From positions 1,302,001 through 1,366,000 of the forward strand of contig CM026547.1 in assembly GCA_014905635.1 (NCBI GenBank): DNA of 64,000 nt, given 5' to 3'. Under the pieces are notes generated by a model. That model was not told where the DNA came from. It saw only the letters and a program-made list of their open reading frames with translations, and did no database searches. Position 1 is the first letter of the stretch. Every line of letters starts with the position of its first letter. Source of the stretch: Scenedesmus sp. PABB004. Lineage: Eukaryota. Made by a program: the position numbers and the translations under genes. Shown in pieces: positions 6,397-51,678 of this stretch.

Positions 6397-9385
<2,989 letters not shown>

Positions 9386-9842: not shown

Positions 9843-12812
<2,970 letters not shown>

Positions 12813-23549: not shown

Positions 23550-25661
23550 TCACGCGGCCTCGCGCAGCGCCTCGGCGGCGTCGCGAACGGCGGACAGCAC
23601 GAGCCACAGCAGCCCCGGGTCATCCCTCGCGTAGACCAGCACCGCCTCCGCCCCGCCCGCCGCCGCGTCCCACGGCTCGTGCCGGTCGACAAAGCCCGCC
23701 AGCAGCAGCAGCTCTCGCGCAGCGGGCAGCGCGCCGAAGCGCCGCTGGAAGGCGGGCTTCGCCACGCGCAGCCGCCGGAAGCGGGCCTCCTGGGACTGCG
23801 CGAGCGCGGCGAGGACGCCCGCCACGTCCTCGCACGCCGCGAGATGGGCGCGCGGCGAGCCCGCCTGCTGGCCCAGCTCGGCCAGCAGCGTGCGCGCGCG
23901 CGCCAGCTTGAGCGCGGCGACGTCGCCGTCCCCGCCGCCGCCCACGGCAGCGACGTCCGCGTCGGGGGGCAGCCCGAGCTGAGGCCCCGACGGCGGCCGC
24001 GCTGGCGCCTGCGGCTGCGACGCCGCCCGCGTCGCCGGCTGCGGCGCCTGCGTCGGCTCTGCTCGCTGCGGCGGCTGCTGCACCTGCTGCGCAGCTGCCT
24101 GCTGTGCAACTGGCGCCGGCTGCTGGGGCCCCAGCTGCTGCCCCTGCTCGCCCTCGTCGTCCTGGCTGCCCAGGCGCCGCATCGCCTCCTCGGCCGCCGC
24201 CGTGCTCTCGTCCACGTCGCTGACCTCGCCGCTGCTGCTGACGTCGTCGCCGCCGCCGCCGCCGCCGCCGGCGTCGACATCGTCCGCGGGCTGCACCTGC
24301 GTGCCCTGCGCCTGCTGCCGCTCGCCGCCCAGCTGCCAGCGCGCCAGCGCGGCGGCGGCGGCCGACTCGCGCGCGCCCAGCGCGCCGCCGACCGCCGCCG
24401 TGCCGCCCGCGCCCGCGAGCGTGCGGCCTGCAGGTGGCGGCGCGGCGCCCAGCTGCTGCTGCTCGTCGCCGTCGTCGCCCAGCCACGCACCGCTGAACAC
24501 GTCGCCGCCCGCGAGCGTGCGCCCCGCGCCGGCGGCCGCCTCGTGCGCCGCGACCTCGCGCAGCAGCTCGCTGTTGAGCGCCTTGAACCGCGCGTCGTGC
24601 TCGTCGTGCTCCTGCGACGCCGGCGCGGGTCGGACGCGCGGGTCAGACGCGCCCGCCGCGGCGCGGCGCTCGGGTGTGCGTGGGCCGCTGTCACGCGCGC
24701 GCGCGCAGGCCCGCGCCTCGGAGCGCGAGCCGCGGCCGCACCATGTGCGCGAGCTCGTGCACCAGCGTCTCGCGGATACGCAGGTACTTGCGGAAGCCGC
24801 GGAGGTCGTCGGTGCGCAGGCGCAGCGCGATGACCTGGCCGCGGTTCACGTTGTAGCCCAGCACGCAGACCGCGCTGATGCCGACGCGGCCCGCCGGCGG
24901 CATCTCCTCGAGCACGCCCACGCGCCAGCGCCGCGACGCCATCACCGCGGCGACCGCGGGGTCGGCCCCCAGCCGCGCGAGCAGCGCCGCCGCCGCCGCC
25001 GCGCTGGGCGCGCCGCGCGGCGCGCCGGGCGGCAGCGGCAGCGCCCGGAAGCCGCCGAAGCAGTGCGGGCCCGGCGGCGCCGCGCCGCCCGCCGCGCCGC
25101 GCCGCCGGCGCGCCGCGGCCGCCTCGTGCTCGAAGCTGGGCAGGCGCAGCGCCGCCGCCGCGGCGCCGCCCGCCTCCACCGCCGCGAGCTCGGACGCGAG
25201 GCTGCCCAGCAGCAGCAGCCGCGCCCCCGGCTGCGCGCCTGCGCGAGGGCGGCGGGCGCGAGGGCGGCGGGCGCGAGGGCGGCGGGCGTTTCATGTCGTG
25301 CCGCGCATGACATGAAGTGCCGCGCGGGAGCGGCGCGCTGTCCATGCGCGGCGCTCGCTCAGCCGCGGCGCGCGGCGGCACGCGCCGTTCCGTCCGCATC
25401 GCTAAGCTCACCTGCGTCCGCGAGGCGCGCCTCGGGCTCCGACGCGAGCGCGAGCGGGCGGCGGCGGCCGGGCAGCAGCATTTGCACCGTGCGCGCTGCG
25501 ACGCCCTGCGGCAGCGCGGCGAGCACGTCCCCGGCGCGGGCGGCGGCATCGAACGGGCCCAGTTCCTTTCCGCGAAAAACGACGGTGAACGTCGACGAGG
25601 CGTCCCGCGGCGACGCCGCTGCGAGCGGCGCTGCCGCGGCCTCTTGCGCAGGGCACGTCAT
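23550..25661 (-). CDS. Ubiquitin-like + WLM (Wss1-like metalloprotease) + PUB domain protein
   Basis: RWRVGVLEEMPP, CVLGYNVNRGQVIALRLRTDDLRGFRKY..IRETLVHELAHM (HExxH); C-terminal EARFRRLRVAKPAFQRRFG...ELLLLAGF (PUB); N-terminal UBL-like FTVVFRGKE. Confidence 0.9.
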
Positions 25662-33308: not shown

Positions 33309-35346
33309 ATGGCCTGGAGCACGCAGCAGCAGCAGGCCCTCGCGGGCGGCCGCCCCGGCGGCTGGCGGGCCTGCTCCAGCCTGGCTCGTGGCCAGGGCAA
33401 GCCGGGTGCGGAGCCGCGGGACCCGCAGACGCGCCTGGGCGCGGCGCGGGCGCCGCTGACAGCGGGGCCTTCACGCCCCTGCCGCTCGCCGCGCGCCGCA
33501 GGCCCCCGGTCGCTGGCGCGCCCGTCGGCCGGCCCCAAGCTGCCTGCGGCGGTGAGGCCCGCGCCGCGGCGCGGGGTTGCCCGCGCGCGCCGCGTCGGCG
33601 GAGGCGTGCTCGGGGTGTGCGGGCGGCGTGCGCGCCTCACTCCGCCCCGCGGCGCGCCGCGGCCGCGCAGGCGCCGTCTGGTGGGCCGGGCAGCTCGGCC
33701 AGCGCCCTGCGCGCCACGCTGAAGGAGAGCCTGGTGCTGGACCAGCACCTGCCCTTCGCCGGCACCGCCAACGGCTTTGTGCCCGGCCGCGCCGTGCTGG
33801 AGGTCCCCGGCTGGCGCGAGCGCGTCCAGCCCGCGGCATCCGGCAGCAGCAGCGCCCACGCGCTCAGCCGGCTGCGCATCTTCAGCGGCACGTCCAACCC
33901 GGTGCGCACCGGCGCGCGTCCGCGCCGCGCCGCCGCGCTGCGTCCGCGCTGTGCGCCGGCAGCGCCCACGGCCCCCCGCGCGCAAGCAGCACGCGCCGCC
34001 AGCGCGCGCGGGGCGTCGCGGTGGCCGCCGCCGCCGCCGCCGCCGCGCCGGCCGACGCGCGCGCGCCCGCGCGCCCGCGCGCCCAGGTGCTGTCTGCCGA
34101 GGTCGCGTCGTACCTGGGGCTCGAGCTGGGCAAGATCAAGATCAAGCGCTTTGCCGACGGCGAGATCTACGTCCAGGTCCAGGTGCGCCGGCCAGCACGG
34201 CAGCCGCGCGGGCGCGGGCGCGTGCAGCTCGCACGGCAGCTGGCGCGGGCAGCTGGAGCGGGCAGCTGGCGCCGCTGGTGCCAGCAGCTCGCGCAGGCGA
34301 GCCCGCGGCTGCCCGCCGCGCGCCCGACGCCCCCCAACCCTGCTCGCCCTGCGCCCTCCGCCCGTGCGCCGCGCAGGAGTCGATCCGCGGCTGCGACGTC
34401 TTCCTCATTCAGCCGACCTGCCCCTCGGTGAACGACAACCTCATGGAGCTGCTGGTCACGATCGACGCCTGCCGCCGCGCGAGCGCGCGCAGCATCACGG
34501 CCGTCCTGCCGTACTACGGCTACGCGCGCGCCGACCGCAAGACGCAGGTGCGGCGCGCGGCGCAGCACGGCAGCGGGCAGCGGCGGGCAGCAGCGGCAAC
34601 AGCGGCGGGGAGCAGCGGGGAGCAGCAGCGGGCGCCGCCGCGGCCCGCGCGCCGCCCGCCGCCCGCCGCCCACGCGCCCACGCCGCCCACGCCGCCCGCC
34701 CGCGCAGGGCCGCGAGTCGATCGCGGCCAAGCTGACGGCCAACCTCATCACCGAGGCGGGCGCGGACCGCGTGCTCGCGATGGACCTGCACAGCGGGCAG
34801 TGCGTGGGCTACTTTGACATCCCCGTGGACCACGTGTACGGCGAGACGGTCATCCTCGACTACCTCGCGTCCAAGCGCCTCGCGACGGGCGACCTCGTGG
34901 TCGTGTCGCCCGACGTCGGCGGCGTCGCGCGCGCGCGCGCGTTTGCCAAGAAGCTCAACGACGCGCCGCTCGCGATCATCGACAAGCGCCGCTCCGCGCA
35001 CAACGTGAGCGAGGTGATGCACCTCATTGGCGACGTGCGCGGCAAGGTCGCGGTGCTCGTGGACGACATGATCGACACCGCGGGCACCATCACCAACGCC
35101 GGCCGCGCGCTGCTCGCGGAGGGCGCGCGCGAGGTCTACGCCTGCACCAGCCACGCCGTGTTCAGCCCGCCCGCGATCGAGCGCCTCAGCAGCGGCGTGT
35201 TCAGCGAGGTCATCGTGACAAACACCATCCCCGTGGCGCGCGAGAACGTGTTCCCCCAGCTCACCATCCTCTCGGTCGCTAACCTGCTCGGCGAGACCAT
35301 CTGGCGCGTCTACAACGCGTCCAGCGTGCAGGCGCTGCGCGACTGA
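33309..35346 (+). CDS. PRS: Ribose-phosphate pyrophosphokinase (class I PRPP synthetase), plastid-targeted (5 exons)
   Basis: [92 protein letters not shown]. Confidence 0.97.
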
Positions 35347-36392
35347 GCGGCGCCCCGGCCGCGGCGGCGCCCCGACGCGCGGCGCGGCCGCGCGGCGCGG
35401 CCGCGAGCCGCGGGTGCAGCAACGGCTGCCCGCGCGCCCGGCCGTGCAGGCGCGCGCGCGCGCGCGCGAGAGGGTGCACTACGCTCACGCGCTGCGCGCG
35501 GCGCCGGCGGCGCGCGCGGCGCGCGCGGGCCGGAGCGGCGCGGCGCCAGTGACTGTCGCTGCGGGAGGCTGGGCTGGGGCGGTGGGGGAGGAGGGCGCTC
35601 GTCGTTTGCCGGCGGCTGGGTTCTGGAGCGGAGCGTCTGTTGCGCACGCGCGTGGGGCGCCTGCTGCGCCCGCCCGCTGCGTCCGTGTCTGCCCCTTGTG
35701 CGGCGAGCCCTTAGGCGCGGCTCCCACTTGCGGCGACGGTGGTCGGGCCTGGTTTTTTTGCGGGAGGGCGGGGGAGATTTAGGGAGGCTTGTCTGCCCGC
35801 CTCCCTCGCAGCAGCGATAGCGGGGGCAAGGCCCGCGGCGCGCCCTCGAGCGCCGCGGCCGCGCCGCCCCGCGTGTACTTTGTTTCTCCCGACGGCACGC
35901 TTAGAAACCTCGACGCTCAGAGCCTGCAGGCTGTGGCATTGCAGCGCGGCCGGGCGGGGCTGCGCGCGCGGCCGGGCGGCGGCGCGCTGAGACGCGCGCG
36001 CTGCGCCCGCGCCGCGGCACGGCGCCCCCGCCCCCGCCGCCGCACACGCACTGCTGGGCTGCTGCTGCCCGCCGCGCGCCGCGGCGCCCGCGGGGCCACA
36101 TGAAGTGCTCGCGGGCGCCCGCGCGCGCCGCGGCGCCGCGCGCGGGCGGTAAGCTCATGGCGGAGCGGACTGCCGGTCGCGCGGCTGCCAGACCCCGAGC
36201 CAATCGATCCCGCGGGCAGCAGCAGCTTCGGACGTTGCCCACGCGCCGCCGCCGCGGCTCCAGCTGCTGCTGCTACTCACTACTCGCTCGCGCGCCGCCG
36301 ACCAACCGAACCTCGCGCTGCTGCATCAGCCGGCCCTGCAGCTGCTCGCCGCCCCCCGCCCCAAAAAAACTGCCCCTCCCGCGCGCGCTCGC

Positions 36393-37494
36393 TCAGCGCG
36401 GCGCGGCCACGTGGTGCAGCTCGGGCAGCTGGCCGGCCGCGATCTGCTCCAGCACCGCCTTGGCGGGGTTGGCGCCGACGTGCGCGTCGGCGGGGATCGA
36501 CGGCGCGCTCGCGTCGTGCACGGCGGCGGGGTCGACGTGCCGCAGCTCGTGCGGCGCCGCGACCTCGCTGAGGAAGCCCTCCTTGTCCCACTGCACCGGC
36601 GGGTGGGGGGGGGGGGGGGCGGCGGGCGCCGTCGGCGGGCGCCGCCGGCGGGCGCGCGGCGCGGCGAGCAGCTGCAGGGGCGCGCAGCGCGCGCGCGCGT
36701 GGCGGGGCCGCGCCTTTTGCACGTGCGTGCTGGGGTCGAGCGCGGGCTTGGCCTTGTCGGCGGTCTCCACGTGGTGCAGCTGGGCCACGAGCGGGCTGGC
36801 CTCCAGGTCCTCGTCGCAGTCGCCCGCGCCCGCTGCGGCGCCGACGGCGCCGACCTCGCGCACCACCGCCGCGTGCGCCGCCGCGGCGCGCACCTCCTGG
36901 AGCAGCTCCGCGCGGTTGCTGGGCTGCACGTGCACGTCGGCTGCGGCGCGGCGGAGCGCCGGGCGGAGCGTCGGGCGGAGCGTCGAGCGGAGCGTCGCGC
37001 GGCGCTGGCGACCGCCGCGCGTGCGCGAGGGCAGCGCAGGCGCCGCTGGCTCACGCTCAATCACGGGCTTGGCCTTGTCCACCGTCTCCACGTGCTTCAG
37101 CGGCACGCCTGCGGGCGGCCGCAGCGACAGCAGCGACAGCAGCGCGTCGGCAGCGGCACCAGCGGCGGCGGCACGCAGCGCGTCGCAGCAGCGCCGGCAG
37201 GCCGGCGGCACGCCTTCCCCTGCCATCCGTGCCCTGGCGCGGCCGCCCGGGGTGCCGCTGCTCGGTGCCTCGGTTTCGGAGCTGTCGGAAAGCAGCCCCT
37301 ACAGCCGCACCGGCCTCGATGCCCGCGAGCAGGCCCTCCTTGTCCCACGTCTTGAGGCTCGCATCACTCTCGATGGCTGGCGCGCTGCGGTCCGACGTCT
37401 CCACGTGGCGCAGCGGGCACCCGCCCGGGATGGCCGCGACGACAGCTGCTGCAGCCGCAGGCGCTGCAGCTGCTGCAGCCGCAGGCGTCGCCAT
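36393..37494 (-). CDS. Actobindin-like (beta-thymosin/WH2 repeat) actin-monomer-binding protein, ~220 aa (4 exons)
   Basis: Exons 37494-37311, 37108-37055, 36940-36714, 36590-36393. Repeats: LRHVETSDRSAPAIE, LKHVETVDKAKPVIEPDVHV, LHHVETADKAKPALD, FLSEVAAPHELRHV..HDASAPSIPADAHV, VLEQIAAG..ELHHV. Confidence 0.82.
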
Positions 37495-37915
37495 GTTGTT
37501 GTTCTGTGCGAGCGTGACAGCGGCGTGCACGGGAGAAGCGCACACACGTCGGCCAGCGCCACCTGCGGGCGGCGGCGCGCGACAGCGGCGGGGCGCGTCT
37601 CAGGCTGCCGCGCGGCTCGAGCGCCAGAGGGCGGCGCCGCACAGTCAGAGCCTCCGCTGCACAGCAGAAGCTACCGCGGCCCCACCACGGCTCCCGGCCG
37701 CCACGCACACGCACCGCGCGCCGTCGGCGGCGTACGAACGTTGAACGCGCAGCGCGCGTTCGAGCCGCTCCCTGCCTGCTCGATCCCTGCCTGCAACCCC
37801 TCTAGACGGCGCTGCAGAGGCGCGGGCAGCGGCAGCGGCAGCAGCGCCGTAGGCGGGCGGCGGCAGGGGGGCGGCAGCAGCGGCAGCGGCAGCGAGCGCC
37901 GGCCGCGCCGGTGCC

Positions 37916-38338
37916 ATGCGCAGCGTGGGCAGCGGCGACCTGCGGCGGGCGAGCAGCCGGCTGGTGCTGCAGGTCGGCGGCGACGAGGCCGGCGCGCGGC
38001 GCGGCGGCAAGGCCGCGTCGTGGGTCGCGCGGCACGACTCGCTCTTCGTCGTGCTCGGCCTCGTGGTCTTTCTTAGCCTCTTTGGCGTGGTCTACGTGCA
38101 GCGCTTCATGCTCGAGTCGGTCACGGTCGGCGACCAGCTGCCCTCGGGCGACGCGGCGGCGCGCGCGGCGCTGCGCAGCGGCGCCACGGCGCAGCGCGGC
38201 GGCGCCGCGGCGCAGTCGCCTGGCGGCGGCGCGGCGGCGCAGCGCGGCGCTGGCGCGGCGGATCTGCGCGGCAAGCCGGTCGAACAGCAGCAGCACGCCG
38301 GCGTGGCGGCGCCCTCGCCGCCGCCGCCGCCGCCGTAG
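37916..38338 (+). CDS. Hypothetical single-pass membrane protein, intronless
   Basis: 140-aa ORF with a clear transmembrane helix LFVVLGLVVFLSLFGVVYV; GGTAA follows at 38437. Confidence 0.7.
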   Translation: MRSVGSGDLRRASSRLVLQVGGDEAGARRGGKAASWVARHDSLFVVLGLVVFLSLFGVVYVQRFMLESVTVGDQLPSGDAAARAALRSGATAQRGGAAAQSPGGGAAAQRGAGAADLRGKPVEQQQHAGVAAPSPPPPPP

Positions 38339-38530
38339 CTGCGGCCGGCTGCAGCTGCAGCTGCCGGCGCGGCGCCTGGCGGCGCGCGCGAGCGTGCGCG
38401 CAGCGGCGTGCATGCGCCGGCGCCGCCGCCGGCGGGGGTAACCAGGGCGGGGCGCTCGATTACCGACGCCCGGCCAAGGAATGCAGCGCGGCGCCAGGCA
38501 CAGGCGCCGGCGCGCCGCGGGCCCCGGGGT

Positions 38531-39685
38531 TTAGTCGTCGCCGCACGTGACGTCGTGCACCTGCGCGAGCAGCGTGCGCAGGTCGCGCCCCTCCGCCGCG
38601 GCGGCGTCGATCATCTCCTTCTTCACCAGCACCGCGTCGGCGCCCGACGCGCGCGCCGCGCGCGCGCCCTCCACGTCCTTGACGCCCACGATGCTGACCG
38701 CGCCGAACGGGAGCTCGCCGAGCAGGCCGTGCGCCATGTCGGCGGCAAACCCCGGCACCGCGACGCTGAGGCCGACGCTGAGGTTGATCCCGTAGAAGAC
38801 CACCCCCGCGCGCGACAGGCCCTCCACCTCGCGCGCGTTGACCACCTCGACCGGCGCGTCGAGGCCGAGCGCCGCGCCAAAGCTGCTCATCACGGCGGTG
38901 CCGCGCCCGTTGACCTGCCCGATCACGCCCAGCACCCCCGCCGCGCCGGCCTCCTTGGCCTCGACCAGCTGCAGCGGGTGGATGACCCAGTCACGCGCCA
39001 GCACGGGCGTGCGCCGCGCCGCCTGCACGACGGCGAACAGGTCCTGCGTCCCGCTCGGCGTGTCCTCGCTGTCGAGGCGCACGCACAGCGCATCGGCGCC
39101 GCACGCGATCGCCTGCGTCGCGAGCGCCGCGAGCTGCTGCGGCGTCGTCGACGGGCTGGGCCGCGTGACCTCCACCACGATCACCGCGCGGCCCTGCATC
39201 TGCCCGACCTCCGCGATCATGCGCGAGAGCCGGTACGCGGGGCTGGCGGGGTTGGCCGTCGCGCTGCTCAGCCGCTCCTCAAGGCCCTCCATGCCCAGCT
39301 CCAGCAGCGCCGCCTCGACCTGCTTGCTCTTGCGCTTGATGGTGATCTCGAGGCTGCTCTGGTAGCTCGTGGACGGCGTGTCCTCGTCGTCGGCGGCGCG
39401 GCAGGCCGGCGAGCCGCGCTCGCGCCGCGGCGGGCGCGGCAGCAGCGCCGCCGCCGCGCCGCGCCGGCGCTGCGCCGCGGGGGTGCTGCAGGCCGCGGCG
39501 GGCGCGGCAGCAGCGCTCGGCGGGCGCGGCAGCAGCGCCGCCGCCGCGCCGCGCCGCCGCCGCGCCGCGGGGGTGCAGGCCGCGCGGCAGGTCGAACAAG
39601 CACGAGTCCCTGGGCTGACGACACGGGCCCCTGTGAGGTGCTGCGCGGCCGCGCCGCGGCCCGCGGGCGCCTGCAGCAGCAGCAT
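38531..39685 (-). CDS. Indole-3-glycerol phosphate synthase-like TIM-barrel protein, divergent, probably plastid-targeted
   Basis: SLEITIKRKSKQVE, VIVVEVTRPSPS, GADALCVRLD, DLFAVVQA, PVLARDWVIHPLQLVEAKEAGAAGVL, LGLDAPVEVVN, YGIN, GADAVLV; single ORF. Confidence 0.85.
   Translation of the reverse strand: MLLLQAPAGRGAAAQHLTGARVVSPGTRACSTCRAACTPAARRRRGAAAALLPRPPSAAAAPAAACSTPAAQRRRGAAAALLPRPPRRERGSPACRAADDEDTPSTSYQSSLEITIKRKSKQVEAALLELGMEGLEERLSSATANPASPAYRLSRMIAEVGQMQGRAVIVVEVTRPSPSTTPQQLAALATQAIACGADALCVRLDSEDTPSGTQDLFAVVQAARRTPVLARDWVIHPLQLVEAKEAGAAGVLGVIGQVNGRGTAVMSSFGAALGLDAPVEVVNAREVEGLSRAGVVFYGINLSVGLSVAVPGFAADMAHGLLGELPFGAVSIVGVKDVEGARAARASGADAVLVKKEMIDAAAAEGRDLRTLLAQVHDVTCGDD
39428..39586. 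repeat. In-frame tandem duplication (~90-bp period) in the IGPS-like transit peptide
   Basis: CGGCGGGCGCGGCAGCAGCGCCGCCGCCGCGCCGCGCCG...GGGGGTG occurs twice and encodes AAC(S)TPAA(R/Q)RRRGAAAALLPRPP twice. Confidence 0.85.
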
Positions 39686-39823
39686 CCCGTTGGACGAGGC
39701 AGCGGCAGCGATCGAGCGAGCGACGGCAGCGGTTGAGGTTAAACGCAGCGACCGGGAATGTGCGAGAGCGCCGAGTTTTCCACCTGCCGCACGACGGTCA
39801 GGGCTTGGCTGCGCCGCCGCGTC

Positions 39824-42138: not shown

Positions 42139-43307
42139 CTAGTACATGAATGGAATGAACTTGGCGACCTTGGCGCGGTAGTCGTCGTACAGCTTGCCGT
42201 ACCGCTCCTGCAGCAGCCGCTCCTCAAGGCCCACCTTGCGCTCGAGCACGGCCCACAGCAGCGCCGCCATGGCGAGCCGCGTCTCGTTGCGCGTGATGAC
42301 CGCCAGCCCAAACGCGGCCGCGAGCAGGCCCGCGTACATGGGGTGCCGCATGTAGCTGAACATGCCGGACGTGACGAGCTCGTGCCGCGCGCGCGGCGCG
42401 GGCAGCGGCGAGATGAAGCGCCCGAGGCTCACCACGCCGTACACCCTGGCAGCGCAGCGGCGGCGGCGGCGGCGGCGGCGGCGTGCCGGCGGGTCGGCGG
42501 ACGGCGTGCCAGCAGGTCGGCGCCCGCGCGCGCGCGCTCAAGTGAGCCCGCCGCCCGCTGCCGGCCGCTGGCGGCCGCTGGCGGCCGCTGCTCACATGAA
42601 GACGAGGCCCGACGTGATGAGCAGCGTGGCGAGGATGTCGACCAGGCCCTGCGCGCAGGCGCGGGAGGGCTGGGCCCCCAGCCGCGCGCGGCGCACAGGG
42701 GCGCCCGCTGCTGGCCGCGCGGCCGCGCGCGCCCACCGTGAGCTGGAACGGCGGCAGCAGCACGAGGACCATGACCGCGATCTGCGCGAGCGTCCACGCC
42801 TCGCCGCGCTTGCCAAACTGCGACTGGTCCTGCAGCTCGGTCAGCAGCTCCTGCGCGCGAGGGCGGGCGCGCGGCAGCGGCGGGTGAGGCGCGCGCCCGC
42901 AGCCGGCCGCCGCCGGCGCGTCTGCCGGCGCGTCCGCCGCGGCGACGCGAGCCGCGGGCGCCGCGCCTGCGCGGCCTCCTGGATGTCCGGCAGCGGGTGG
43001 CTGCCCACCACCGCCTGCTCCGCGGCGCTGCCCGGCTCCTCCACGGCGCTGGGCTCAACCACCGAGACCTTGGCCTCGGCGTCCTCGGCGGCGCTGCGCG
43101 GGCAGCAGCGGCGGCGGCGCTCGGCGGCCGCGCGGCGAGCGGGTGCGGGGCCCTGCGCTTGCGTGCCCTGGCTCACCTGGTCGCCCGCCTCACAAGGCGG
43201 CGCCGAGGCGGGGCGCCGAGCCGGCACGCGGCCGGCAGGCGCGGGGCCGGGCGCTGCAGCGCGCGCATCTGCGCGCCCCCACACGGCGCGGCCGCCAGCG
43301 CTGCCAT
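42139..43307 (-). CDS. ICMT/PEMT-family membrane methyltransferase, probably plastid-targeted (5 exons)
   Basis: FGKRGEAWTLAQ, SLGRFISPLPAPR, ELVTSGMFSYMRHPMYAGLL, KVGLEERLLQERYG..YDDYRAKVAKFIPFMY. Confidence 0.88.

Positions 43308-48894: not shown

Positions 48895-51678
<2,784 letters not shown>

Follow-up and report, generated by a model that had tools for sequence, protein, structure and literature searches.

A five-repeat WH2/β-thymosin-type protein of Scenedesmus sp. PABB004, a putative actin-monomer binder in the repeat family of amoebozoan actobindin-type proteins

We analyzed a 64,000-nucleotide (nt) stretch of the genome of the green alga Scenedesmus sp. PABB004 (contig CM026547.1, positions 1,302,001 to 1,366,000; hereafter the window, in whose numbering all coordinates are given). 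Its minus strand carries a gene of four exons and three introns, here called the WH2 gene, which reaches from ATG to stop codon exactly over positions 37494-36393 and has a coding sequence of 663 nt for 220 amino acids (aa). By its sequence, this gene is an orthologue within a five-repeat family of Chlorophyceae that has already been predicted and automatically named. Its product is also a member, on the same kind of evidence, of the repeat family that includes the amoebozoan actobindin-type proteins; orthology to actobindin itself is not claimed. We consider it probable that the protein is an intrinsically disordered, multivalent binder of actin monomers of the long WH2/β-thymosin (actobindin) type, for which buffering or sequestering of monomers would be the likeliest role.

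Repeat architecture

The repeats are recognized by five L[KRH]HV motifs at aa 28, 65, 134, 171, and 213, the first three of which are extended by ETxD[KR]x[AK]P (LRHVETSDRSAP, LKHVETVDKAKP, and LHHVETADKAKP). An earlier description made from the DNA letters alone (the original prediction) had proposed a spliced protein of about 220 aa with these five motifs and three extensions. This protein is indeed encoded at the locus, and the segment quoted from it, WDKEGFLSEVAAPHELRHV...SAPSIPADAHV, is found in exon 4. Translated in all six frames, the window as a whole (127,996 residues) contains five L[KRH]HV motifs, all of them in the coding frames of the WH2 gene. Likewise, a profile of the algal family matched two of the 687 six-frame open reading frames (ORFs) of at least 30 aa, and both are reading frames of this gene.

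Tandem units of about 37 residues make up the whole protein. No other domain was detected, either by Pfam or in an AlphaFold2 (AF2) model of the relative P0069 (P numbers denote collected relatives). The motif-to-motif spacings are 37, 69, 37, and 42. The third unit is thus lengthened, with a spacing of 69 in the window protein and in P0069, the one close relative measured, versus 51 in Chromochloris. It carries a second helix, and an acidic Gly/Ala/Asp insert is present in the window protein and in eight relatives of its clade. The succession of helix and motif is visible in the sequence (LLAGIEAGVPLKHV, FLSEVAAPHELRHV, and VLEQIAAGQLPELHHV). In repeat 1 an alanine tract takes the place of most of the helix, with hydrophobic VVAAI still aligning with AILAAV of a Mayorella protein. 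This N-terminal tract is encoded by a 9-nt DNA repeat of the GCTGCAGCC type in exon 1 (37445-37482).

The AF2 model of P0069, computed from a 20-row alignment, has no globular fold (mean predicted local distance difference test 62.4, predicted template modelling score 0.19). A predicted helix precedes each LxHV, at residues 2-8, 38-46, 75-101/115-118, 144-151, and 185-192, with the long one in the third unit. The low confidence is as would be expected of a disordered protein.

Gene model and splicing

The start codon at 37494 lies in an A-rich context (AACAACAACATGGCG); the exon and intron boundaries are given in Table 1. The splice model is based on colinearity with full-length relatives (196-239 aa), which run without a break across the junctions GIEAG/VPLKHV, PVIEP/DVHVQP, and HVQK/WDKEGF (slashes marking the exon borders). 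The spliced protein with a GC donor at intron 3 scores 243.7 bits against the algal family profile, in a single stretch over profile positions 18-201 of 211. Use of an alternative GT donor 9 nt upstream, which would end exon 3 at 36723 and shorten the protein by three residues, lowers the score to 229.3 bits. Retention of intron 3 gives 224.5 bits in two pieces, and retention of introns 2 and 3 gives 204.4 bits in three pieces.

The ORFs of other assemblies point in the same direction. Similarity to many single-exon ORFs stops exactly at the end of exon 3. In the relatives' exon-3-type ORFs a Val codon (GTx) directly follows the same Lys, and in other relatives the match starts right after the Gln (CAG) that precedes WDK. 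Since these ORFs run on with Val and resume after Gln, the position of intron 3 is shared, apparently with a GT donor in the relatives where the window has GC. We regard the use of a GC donor by intron 3 of the WH2 gene as likely but unproven. We rejected the possibility of an additional intron within the long linker of exon 3, since this linker and its acidic insert are kept in the eight full-length relatives of the same well-supported clade.

The raw ORF 36396-37298 (minus strand) spans introns 2 and 3 as a 301-aa chimera, because both introns are multiples of three without stop codons. The same stretch contains long open frames on both strands, for example 35905-38076 on the plus strand (723 aa). 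In this DNA of 79% guanine-plus-cytosine (GC) content, whether a frame codes cannot be judged from its length. The locus holds a lesson for annotation: at 79% GC, ORF callers are misled, introns 2 and 3 of the three lack any in-frame stop and so produce a naive 301-aa chimera, and intron 3 apparently has a GC donor. Intron 2 also contains a simple repeat (a 12-nt unit in 4.4 copies, 36950-37002), and intron 3 a run of 19 identical bases (36601-36619, C on the strand of the gene). A TGTAA polyadenylation signal was not found in the regions scanned, 35001-36393 on the gene's strand and 37401-39000 on the plus strand.

WH2 character and likeness to actobindin

The Pfam gathering cut-offs are 23.1 bits for WH2 (PF02205) and 24.8 bits for Thymosin (PF01290). 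Orthologues of the window protein pass the WH2 cut-off (P0069, 37.1; P0071, 39.5; P0018, 60.2; P0014, 40.1; P0032, 35.5; P0001, 27.1 bits), and a precomputed PF02205 assignment exists for 37 of the 61 matches of the family profile. Against the PDB, the family profile found N-WASP (3m3n_W) with an expectation value (E) of 8e-6 and, more weakly, MIM (2d1k_C, E 0.012), WIP (2a41_C, E 0.024), and Spire (3mn7_S, E 0.17). All PDB matches at E<=0.17 are WH2 peptides solved with actin. The WIP and MIM alignments follow the pattern LLxxIxxGxxLK..T.DRSAP, which recurs in EGLLAGIEAGVPLKHVETVDKAKP of the window protein.

Relatives scored against PF01290 remained below the cut-off (P0003, 16.8; P0021, 14.5; P0037, 14.6 bits), and one relative, P0087, has a precomputed PF01290 assignment. 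Look-alikes of P0001 in the ESM Atlas were multi-repeat thymosin clusters with a score of 0.89 (187 of 256 features), which lies under the 0.9 line and serves as a lead only; with the thymosin clusters left out, only unnamed clusters (0.78) were found.

The closest comparison is with actobindin. According to the accessible part of its description (PMC2132640), the hexapeptide LKHAET occurs twice in the Acanthamoeba protein, at residues 15-20 and 51-56, and its lysines cross-link to actin. The Dictyostelium actobindins sequester monomeric actin (G-actin), and a triple knock-out has more actin at the front, as stated in the accessible part of PMC12344061. The window protein has L[KRH]HVET three times and a spacing of 37 residues in two of its four intervals (motifs 1-2 and 3-4). 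Run against 1.84 billion library proteins, phmmer found matches from Amoebozoa: a 290-aa repeat protein of Nolandella (P0017, E 6.6e-16) and a protein of Mayorella sp. (P0052, E 1.5e-4). The latter (91 aa) and P0105 of Pyxidicula operculata (110 aa) are small relatives with two to three repeats. Mayorella was assigned to Amoebozoa by taxonomy look-up, and we take Pyxidicula and Nolandella to be Amoebozoa as well. Exon 4 is 38% identical to P0052 over 60 aa (E 3e-10) and 43% identical to the unlabelled P0055 over 53 aa (E 2e-14); exon 1 is 45% identical to P0052 over 31 aa. Aligned by hhalign, the algal family and six small proteins, two of them with a taxon label (Amoebozoa), matched with 99.75% probability (E 2.6e-27) over 106 columns. 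The comparison with actobindin was made via these amoebozoan relatives and the published description, not via a sequence named actobindin; a search with P0055 for such a sequence matched only P0055 itself and P0117.

Actobindin (Acanthamoeba; Dictyostelium abnA-C) and the small amoebozoan proteins share with the window protein a unit of helix, LKH-x-ET, and DKSxPxI. The spacing is 36 in actobindin as far as its accessible description goes, 37-38 in the small amoebozoan-type proteins, and 37 in the window protein. No other domain is present in either, and by analogy the expected ligand would be G-actin in both. There are also differences. Actobindin has two repeats and a total length of about 90 residues, and proteins of its type have two to three repeats in about 90-110 aa, whereas the window protein has five in 220 aa; this five-repeat architecture is conserved in the algal family. 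Furthermore, the algal hexapeptide has Val instead of Ala, one unit is lengthened by the second helix and the acidic insert (spacing 69), and repeats 4 and 5 are without the ETxDK extension. The actobindin-like reading of the original prediction consequently stands as far as the tandem WH2/β-thymosin repeats, the 37-residue period, and the similarity to Mayorella, Pyxidicula, and Nolandella proteins are concerned; the idea of a lone "expanded actobindin" does not, since the protein is one of a family present in 12 species.

Other known systems are more distant. The extended WH2 regions of WIP/verprolin and MIM (2a41, 2d1k) and the tandem WH2 of N-WASP (3m3n) align residue by residue with repeat 2 of the family. 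In those proteins, however, single or double WH2s form part of large multidomain regulators that also have proline-rich regions and further domains, while the algal protein consists of repeats alone, and the third residue of the algal motif is His where their WH2s have Lys. Multi-repeat β-thymosins such as Ciboulot and tetrathymosin (PF01290) likewise consist of tandem repeats of about 37 aa only, but the window protein has no PF01290 match and the named members of the thymosin look-alikes are metazoan. Spire, Cobl, and VopL/VopF resemble the window protein in having several WH2s in a row, and the Spire DDD construct is matched weakly in the profile searches; these nucleators carry KIND, FYVE, or dimerisation domains and lack the ETxDKSxPxI extension.

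Several observations weigh against assigning the window protein to the WH2/β-thymosin class and against counting all five repeats as actin-binding sites. Scored piecewise, its parts remain under the WH2 cut-off (exon 1, 19.4 bits, E 8e-4; read-through of exons 2-4, 14.7 bits), and exons 3 and 4 singly give no Pfam WH2 match. Intron 1 of the WH2 gene cuts through the stretch that scores best as WH2 in the orthologues (residues 41-61, second repeat). PDB searches with single exons matched Hel308 (E 1.4) and a lysyltransferase (E ~0.1) but no WH2 chain, and no window exon matches Pfam Thymosin PF01290. Short repeated motifs can also inflate profile significance, so that part of the significance of the matches reported above stems from repetition. 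Within the protein, the helix of repeat 1 is Ala-rich and degenerate, repeats 3 and 5 have LHHV without a basic second residue, and the extension is absent from repeats 4 and 5. For these three reasons, the functional sites may number fewer than five.

Distribution and descent of the algal family

Searched with the in-frame read-through of exons 2-4, the library of 1.84 billion representatives yielded 60 proteins at E<=0.001. In BLASTP comparisons of the spliced protein with the collected relatives, P0069, from a Tetradesmus obliquus cluster, was 74% identical over 193 aa (window aa 28-220, E 2e-104), with 79% over exon 3 and 75% over exon 4. It was followed by P0073 (72%, 193 aa), P0071 (69%, 192 aa), P0067 (68%, 204 aa), P0018 (47%, 191 aa), and P0043 (36%, 194 aa). 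The four full-length relatives at 68-74% identity belong to the Scenedesmaceae clade, and two of them come from transcriptome assemblies. At 45 alignment columns, counted over exons 1, 3, and 4 with exon 2 left out, at least 80% of 17 orthologues agree; the window keeps 42 of these columns, and all three differences fall in repeat 1.

The five-repeat family was found in 12 named species, all of them Chlorophyceae: the Scenedesmaceae Tetradesmus obliquus, T. deserticola, Enallax costatus, and Scenedesmus sp. NREL 46B-D3, as well as Chromochloris zofingiensis, Monoraphidium neglectum, M. minutum, Chlamydomonas schloesseri, C. incerta, Volvox carteri, V. africanus, and Pleodorina starrii. UniRef names the members of V. 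carteri, V. africanus, Pleodorina, M. neglectum, and T. obliquus "WH2 domain-containing protein", and the NCBI label is hypothetical protein. The original prediction, which had let its claim of novelty depend on the protein not being widely annotated in chlorophytes, therefore went too far in this respect: orthologues are widespread and automatically annotated in Chlorophyceae, with 12 species holding the family and five UniRef names. In a literature search covering freely available main texts (supplements and subscription papers were outside it), and including the accessible parts of PMC12050087, PMC11853071, and a 2026 bioRxiv preprint, we found no paper describing a five-repeat WH2 family in green algae; the searches aimed at green algae likewise yielded none on a β-thymosin- or actobindin-type protein in them.

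A maximum-likelihood tree was computed from 18 full-length rows, leaving out partial Monoraphidium proteins and matches of other architecture. The window gene groups with the Scenedesmaceae (support 97/98). The Volvocales form a separate clade (95/91), with Chromochloris on the sphaeroplealean side, and the helix-plus-LxHV design is conserved across both orders. The tree mirrors the split between Sphaeropleales and Volvocales, a pattern that fits vertical descent of the WH2 gene within Chlorophyceae.

Proposed function and alternative explanations

Each repeat is predicted to consist of a short amphipathic helix of LLxxI-like type followed about five residues on by L[KRH]HV, to which repeats 1-3 would add an ETxD[KR]xxPxI strand. 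In WH2-actin complexes such as those of N-WASP, MIM, WIP, and Spire, the helix sits in a cleft of the actin monomer. By analogy, each repeat would bind one monomer, its helix lying in the cleft of the barbed face and its LxHV, together with the extension, running along the monomer surface. With three to five working sites, one molecule would hold several G-actins and thereby buffer the monomer pool, and it might also feed barbed ends, as has been reported for amoebal actobindins. We infer actin binding, its stoichiometry, and a sequestering activity of the algal protein from these analogies; between sequestering, barbed-end feeding, and nucleation, the sequence cannot distinguish. Hertzog et al. 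are said to have found in 2002 and 2004 that such repeats can switch between inhibiting and promoting assembly. Discussion of the actin monomer pool in green algae usually centres on profilin and cofilin. Conserved as it is in Scenedesmaceae, Chromochloris, Monoraphidium, Chlamydomonas, and Volvox, the five-site WH2 protein would be a candidate for a monomer buffer or an assembly factor missing from this picture. The weight of this finding is moderate, the WH2 gene being an orthologue of proteins that were already predicted and automatically named.

It is unlikely, in our estimate, that the protein acts mainly as a tandem-WH2 nucleator or severing factor of the Spire/Cobl/VopL kind, which would line monomers up into a seed and not buffer them. 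Such a role would suit the five WH2-type repeats in tandem and the alignment of the family profile with about 85 residues of the Spire DDD construct 3mn7_S (E 0.17), to which the profile of the small proteins (A2) also aligns (E 2.5e-4). To our knowledge, Chlamydomonas-type green algae have few known nucleators, and this would leave room for one. The family's match to Spire is weak, however, a dimerisation or membrane-targeting domain was not detected, and the AF2 model of P0069 has short helices only. Moreover, in sequence the protein stands nearest to the small ones of actobindin type, and the role published for this analogue is sequestering, according to the accessible part of PMC12344061. 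We are similarly doubtful of a broader proposal, in which the protein would be a stand-alone tandem-WH2 actin assembly factor of walled green algae, either nucleator or barbed-end feeder, and the actobindin-type repeat an ancient eukaryotic module. If true, this would add a second, unrecognised route of filament formation beside formin and Arp2/3, possibly tuned to the unusual actin system of these algae, and would take the actobindin-type repeat protein beyond Amoebozoa, to Archaeplastida. Conversely, the repeats could be a WH2 look-alike for another partner, or a disordered spacer, with actin not being the ligand. We hold this to be distinctly improbable. The window exons do lie below the Pfam WH2 threshold, P0052 of Mayorella has no Pfam WH2 match and P0055 only 15 bits, and the literature search yielded no experiment on any algal member. 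Nevertheless, orthologues exceed the curated threshold, the family profile's structural matches at E<=0.17 are without exception WH2 peptides solved with actin, and helix plus LxHV are conserved across Sphaeropleales and Volvocales. In addition, hexapeptide and spacing fit the actin-cross-linked hexapeptide of actobindin, as given in the accessible part of PMC2132640.

Two further explanations concern the origin of the gene and not the function of its product. Horizontal transfer into green algae from an amoebozoan or another protist, left open by the original prediction, appears highly unlikely. It is true that the named members outside Chlorophyceae are Amoebozoa and that no land plant or other viridiplant name occurs among the 61 family-profile matches. 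Most of these matches have no taxon label, though, so absence from other groups is not established. The WH2 gene has the GC content and the intron type of its host and is surrounded by housekeeping genes, the five-repeat architecture is common to the 12 named Chlorophyceae species, and the tree parts Volvocales and Sphaeropleales in agreement with the species tree. A transfer into this lineage is unsupported because the tree follows this split; at most, an old transfer dating back to the base of this class would come into question. The chance that the gene is a fortuitous open frame or a pseudogene in very GC-rich DNA is practically negligible. Long ORFs do occur in all frames at 79% GC, and introns 2 and 3 are open in frame too, but full-length identity of 68-74% to four Scenedesmaceae-clade relatives, two of them transcriptome-derived, the retention of 42 of 45 conserved columns, and an unbroken frame all stand against it.

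Genomic surroundings and the wider repertoire of the repeat

GC content is 76-83% per 2 kb across the window and about 79% in the WH2 gene, like its surroundings. Its neighbours, recognized by Pfam matches on ORF fragments, are phosphoribosyl pyrophosphate (PRPP) synthetase and indole-3-glycerol-phosphate synthase, and the neighbourhood of the gene is an ordinary nuclear housekeeping region. No sign of recent transfer or contamination was seen at the locus in GC content, introns, neighbours, or tree. The view of the original prediction that host-type introns speak against a contaminant thus agrees with the GC content of about 79%, the housekeeping neighbours, and the position in the Scenedesmaceae clade (97/98).

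Table 1. Features of the WH2 gene and of the rest of the window, with window coordinates
Feature	Position	Strand	Description
Exon 1	37311..37494	-	Ala-rich N-terminus, WH2 repeat 1 (LRHVETSDRSAP), repeat 2 helix (WDKEGLLAGIEAG)
Intron 1	37109..37310	-	202 nt, GT..AG, phase 1; cuts repeat 2 between helix and LKHV
Exon 2	37055..37108	-	54 nt; LKHVETVDKAKPVIE of repeat 2
Intron 2	36941..37054	-	114 nt, GTGAG..CAG; in frame, stop-free; 12-nt tandem repeat inside
Exon 3	36714..36940	-	long helix (LLQEVRAAAAHAAVVREV), acidic Gly/Ala/Asp insert, repeat 3 (LHHVETADKAKP)
Intron 3	36591..36713	-	123 nt, GC..AG (AAG/GCGCGG ... GTGCAG/TGG); in frame, stop-free
Exon 4	36393..36590	-	repeat 4 (WDKEGFLSEVAAPHELRHV...SAPSIPADAHV), repeat 5 (AKAVLEQIAAGQLPELHHV), stop TGA 36395-36393
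LRHV, repeat 1	37402..37413	-	motif search
LKHV, repeat 2	37089..37100	-	motif search
LHHV, repeat 3	36768..36779	-	motif search
LRHV, repeat 4	36534..36545	-	motif search
LHHV, repeat 5	36408..36419	-	motif search
PRPP synthetase	34432-35343	+	flank of WH2 gene
Indole-3-glycerol-phosphate synthase	38534-39823	-	flank of WH2 gene
Uracil phosphoribosyltransferase	6400-7998	-	Pfam match on ORF fragment
WD40	12018-12809	+	Pfam match on ORF fragment
PUB domain, sub-threshold	23553-24845	-	Pfam match on ORF fragment
PEMT/ICMT-type methyltransferase	42142-42537	-	Pfam match on ORF fragment
Phenylalanyl-tRNA synthetase core	49268-50611	-	Pfam match on ORF fragment

A divergent ORF (37917-38338, plus strand) begins about 420 bp upstream of the ATG of the WH2 gene. 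It has a hydrophobic stretch (LFVVLGLVVFLSLFGVVYV) and no Pfam match; a promoter region common to this ORF and the WH2 gene is conceivable.

Beyond the algal family, repeats of the LKHVET-DKSxPxI type also occur in relatives fused to LIM (PF00412), Macro, PH, and CsbD-like (PF05532) domains, and they form giant arrays of 929 aa and 1179 aa. These fusion and array relatives (P0086, P0092, P0098, P0100, P0103, P0104, P0106, P0109, P0111, P0112; P0036; P0096; P0093, P0114, P0115; P0003, P0060) were, where checked, unlabelled JGI/IMG metagenome records, with P0096 coming from Logan. Their sequences suggest that protists use this repeat in a much wider range of proteins, most of them undescribed. 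The source names "flavodoxin", "predicted GIY-YIG superfamily endonuclease", and "YjbJ (UPF0337 family)" attached to P0021, P0117, P0093, P0094, P0114, and P0115 do not fit the sequences, apart from the CsbD part of P0093, P0114, and P0115, and look like automatic mis-annotations. P0017 has a precomputed Pfam label, PF26454, which the Pfam copy used here does not report for it and which could be a more recent model for repeats of this kind. Finally, short (37-38 aa) and long (at least 51 aa) units alternate in P0002, P0017, P0018, P0023, and exon 3 of the window, the long unit having a second helix of the type AVLxEV....AHKxLxKEI ahead of LKHV. This alternation is common to the amoebozoan Nolandella protein and the algal family, a pattern that hints at an old two-unit module.

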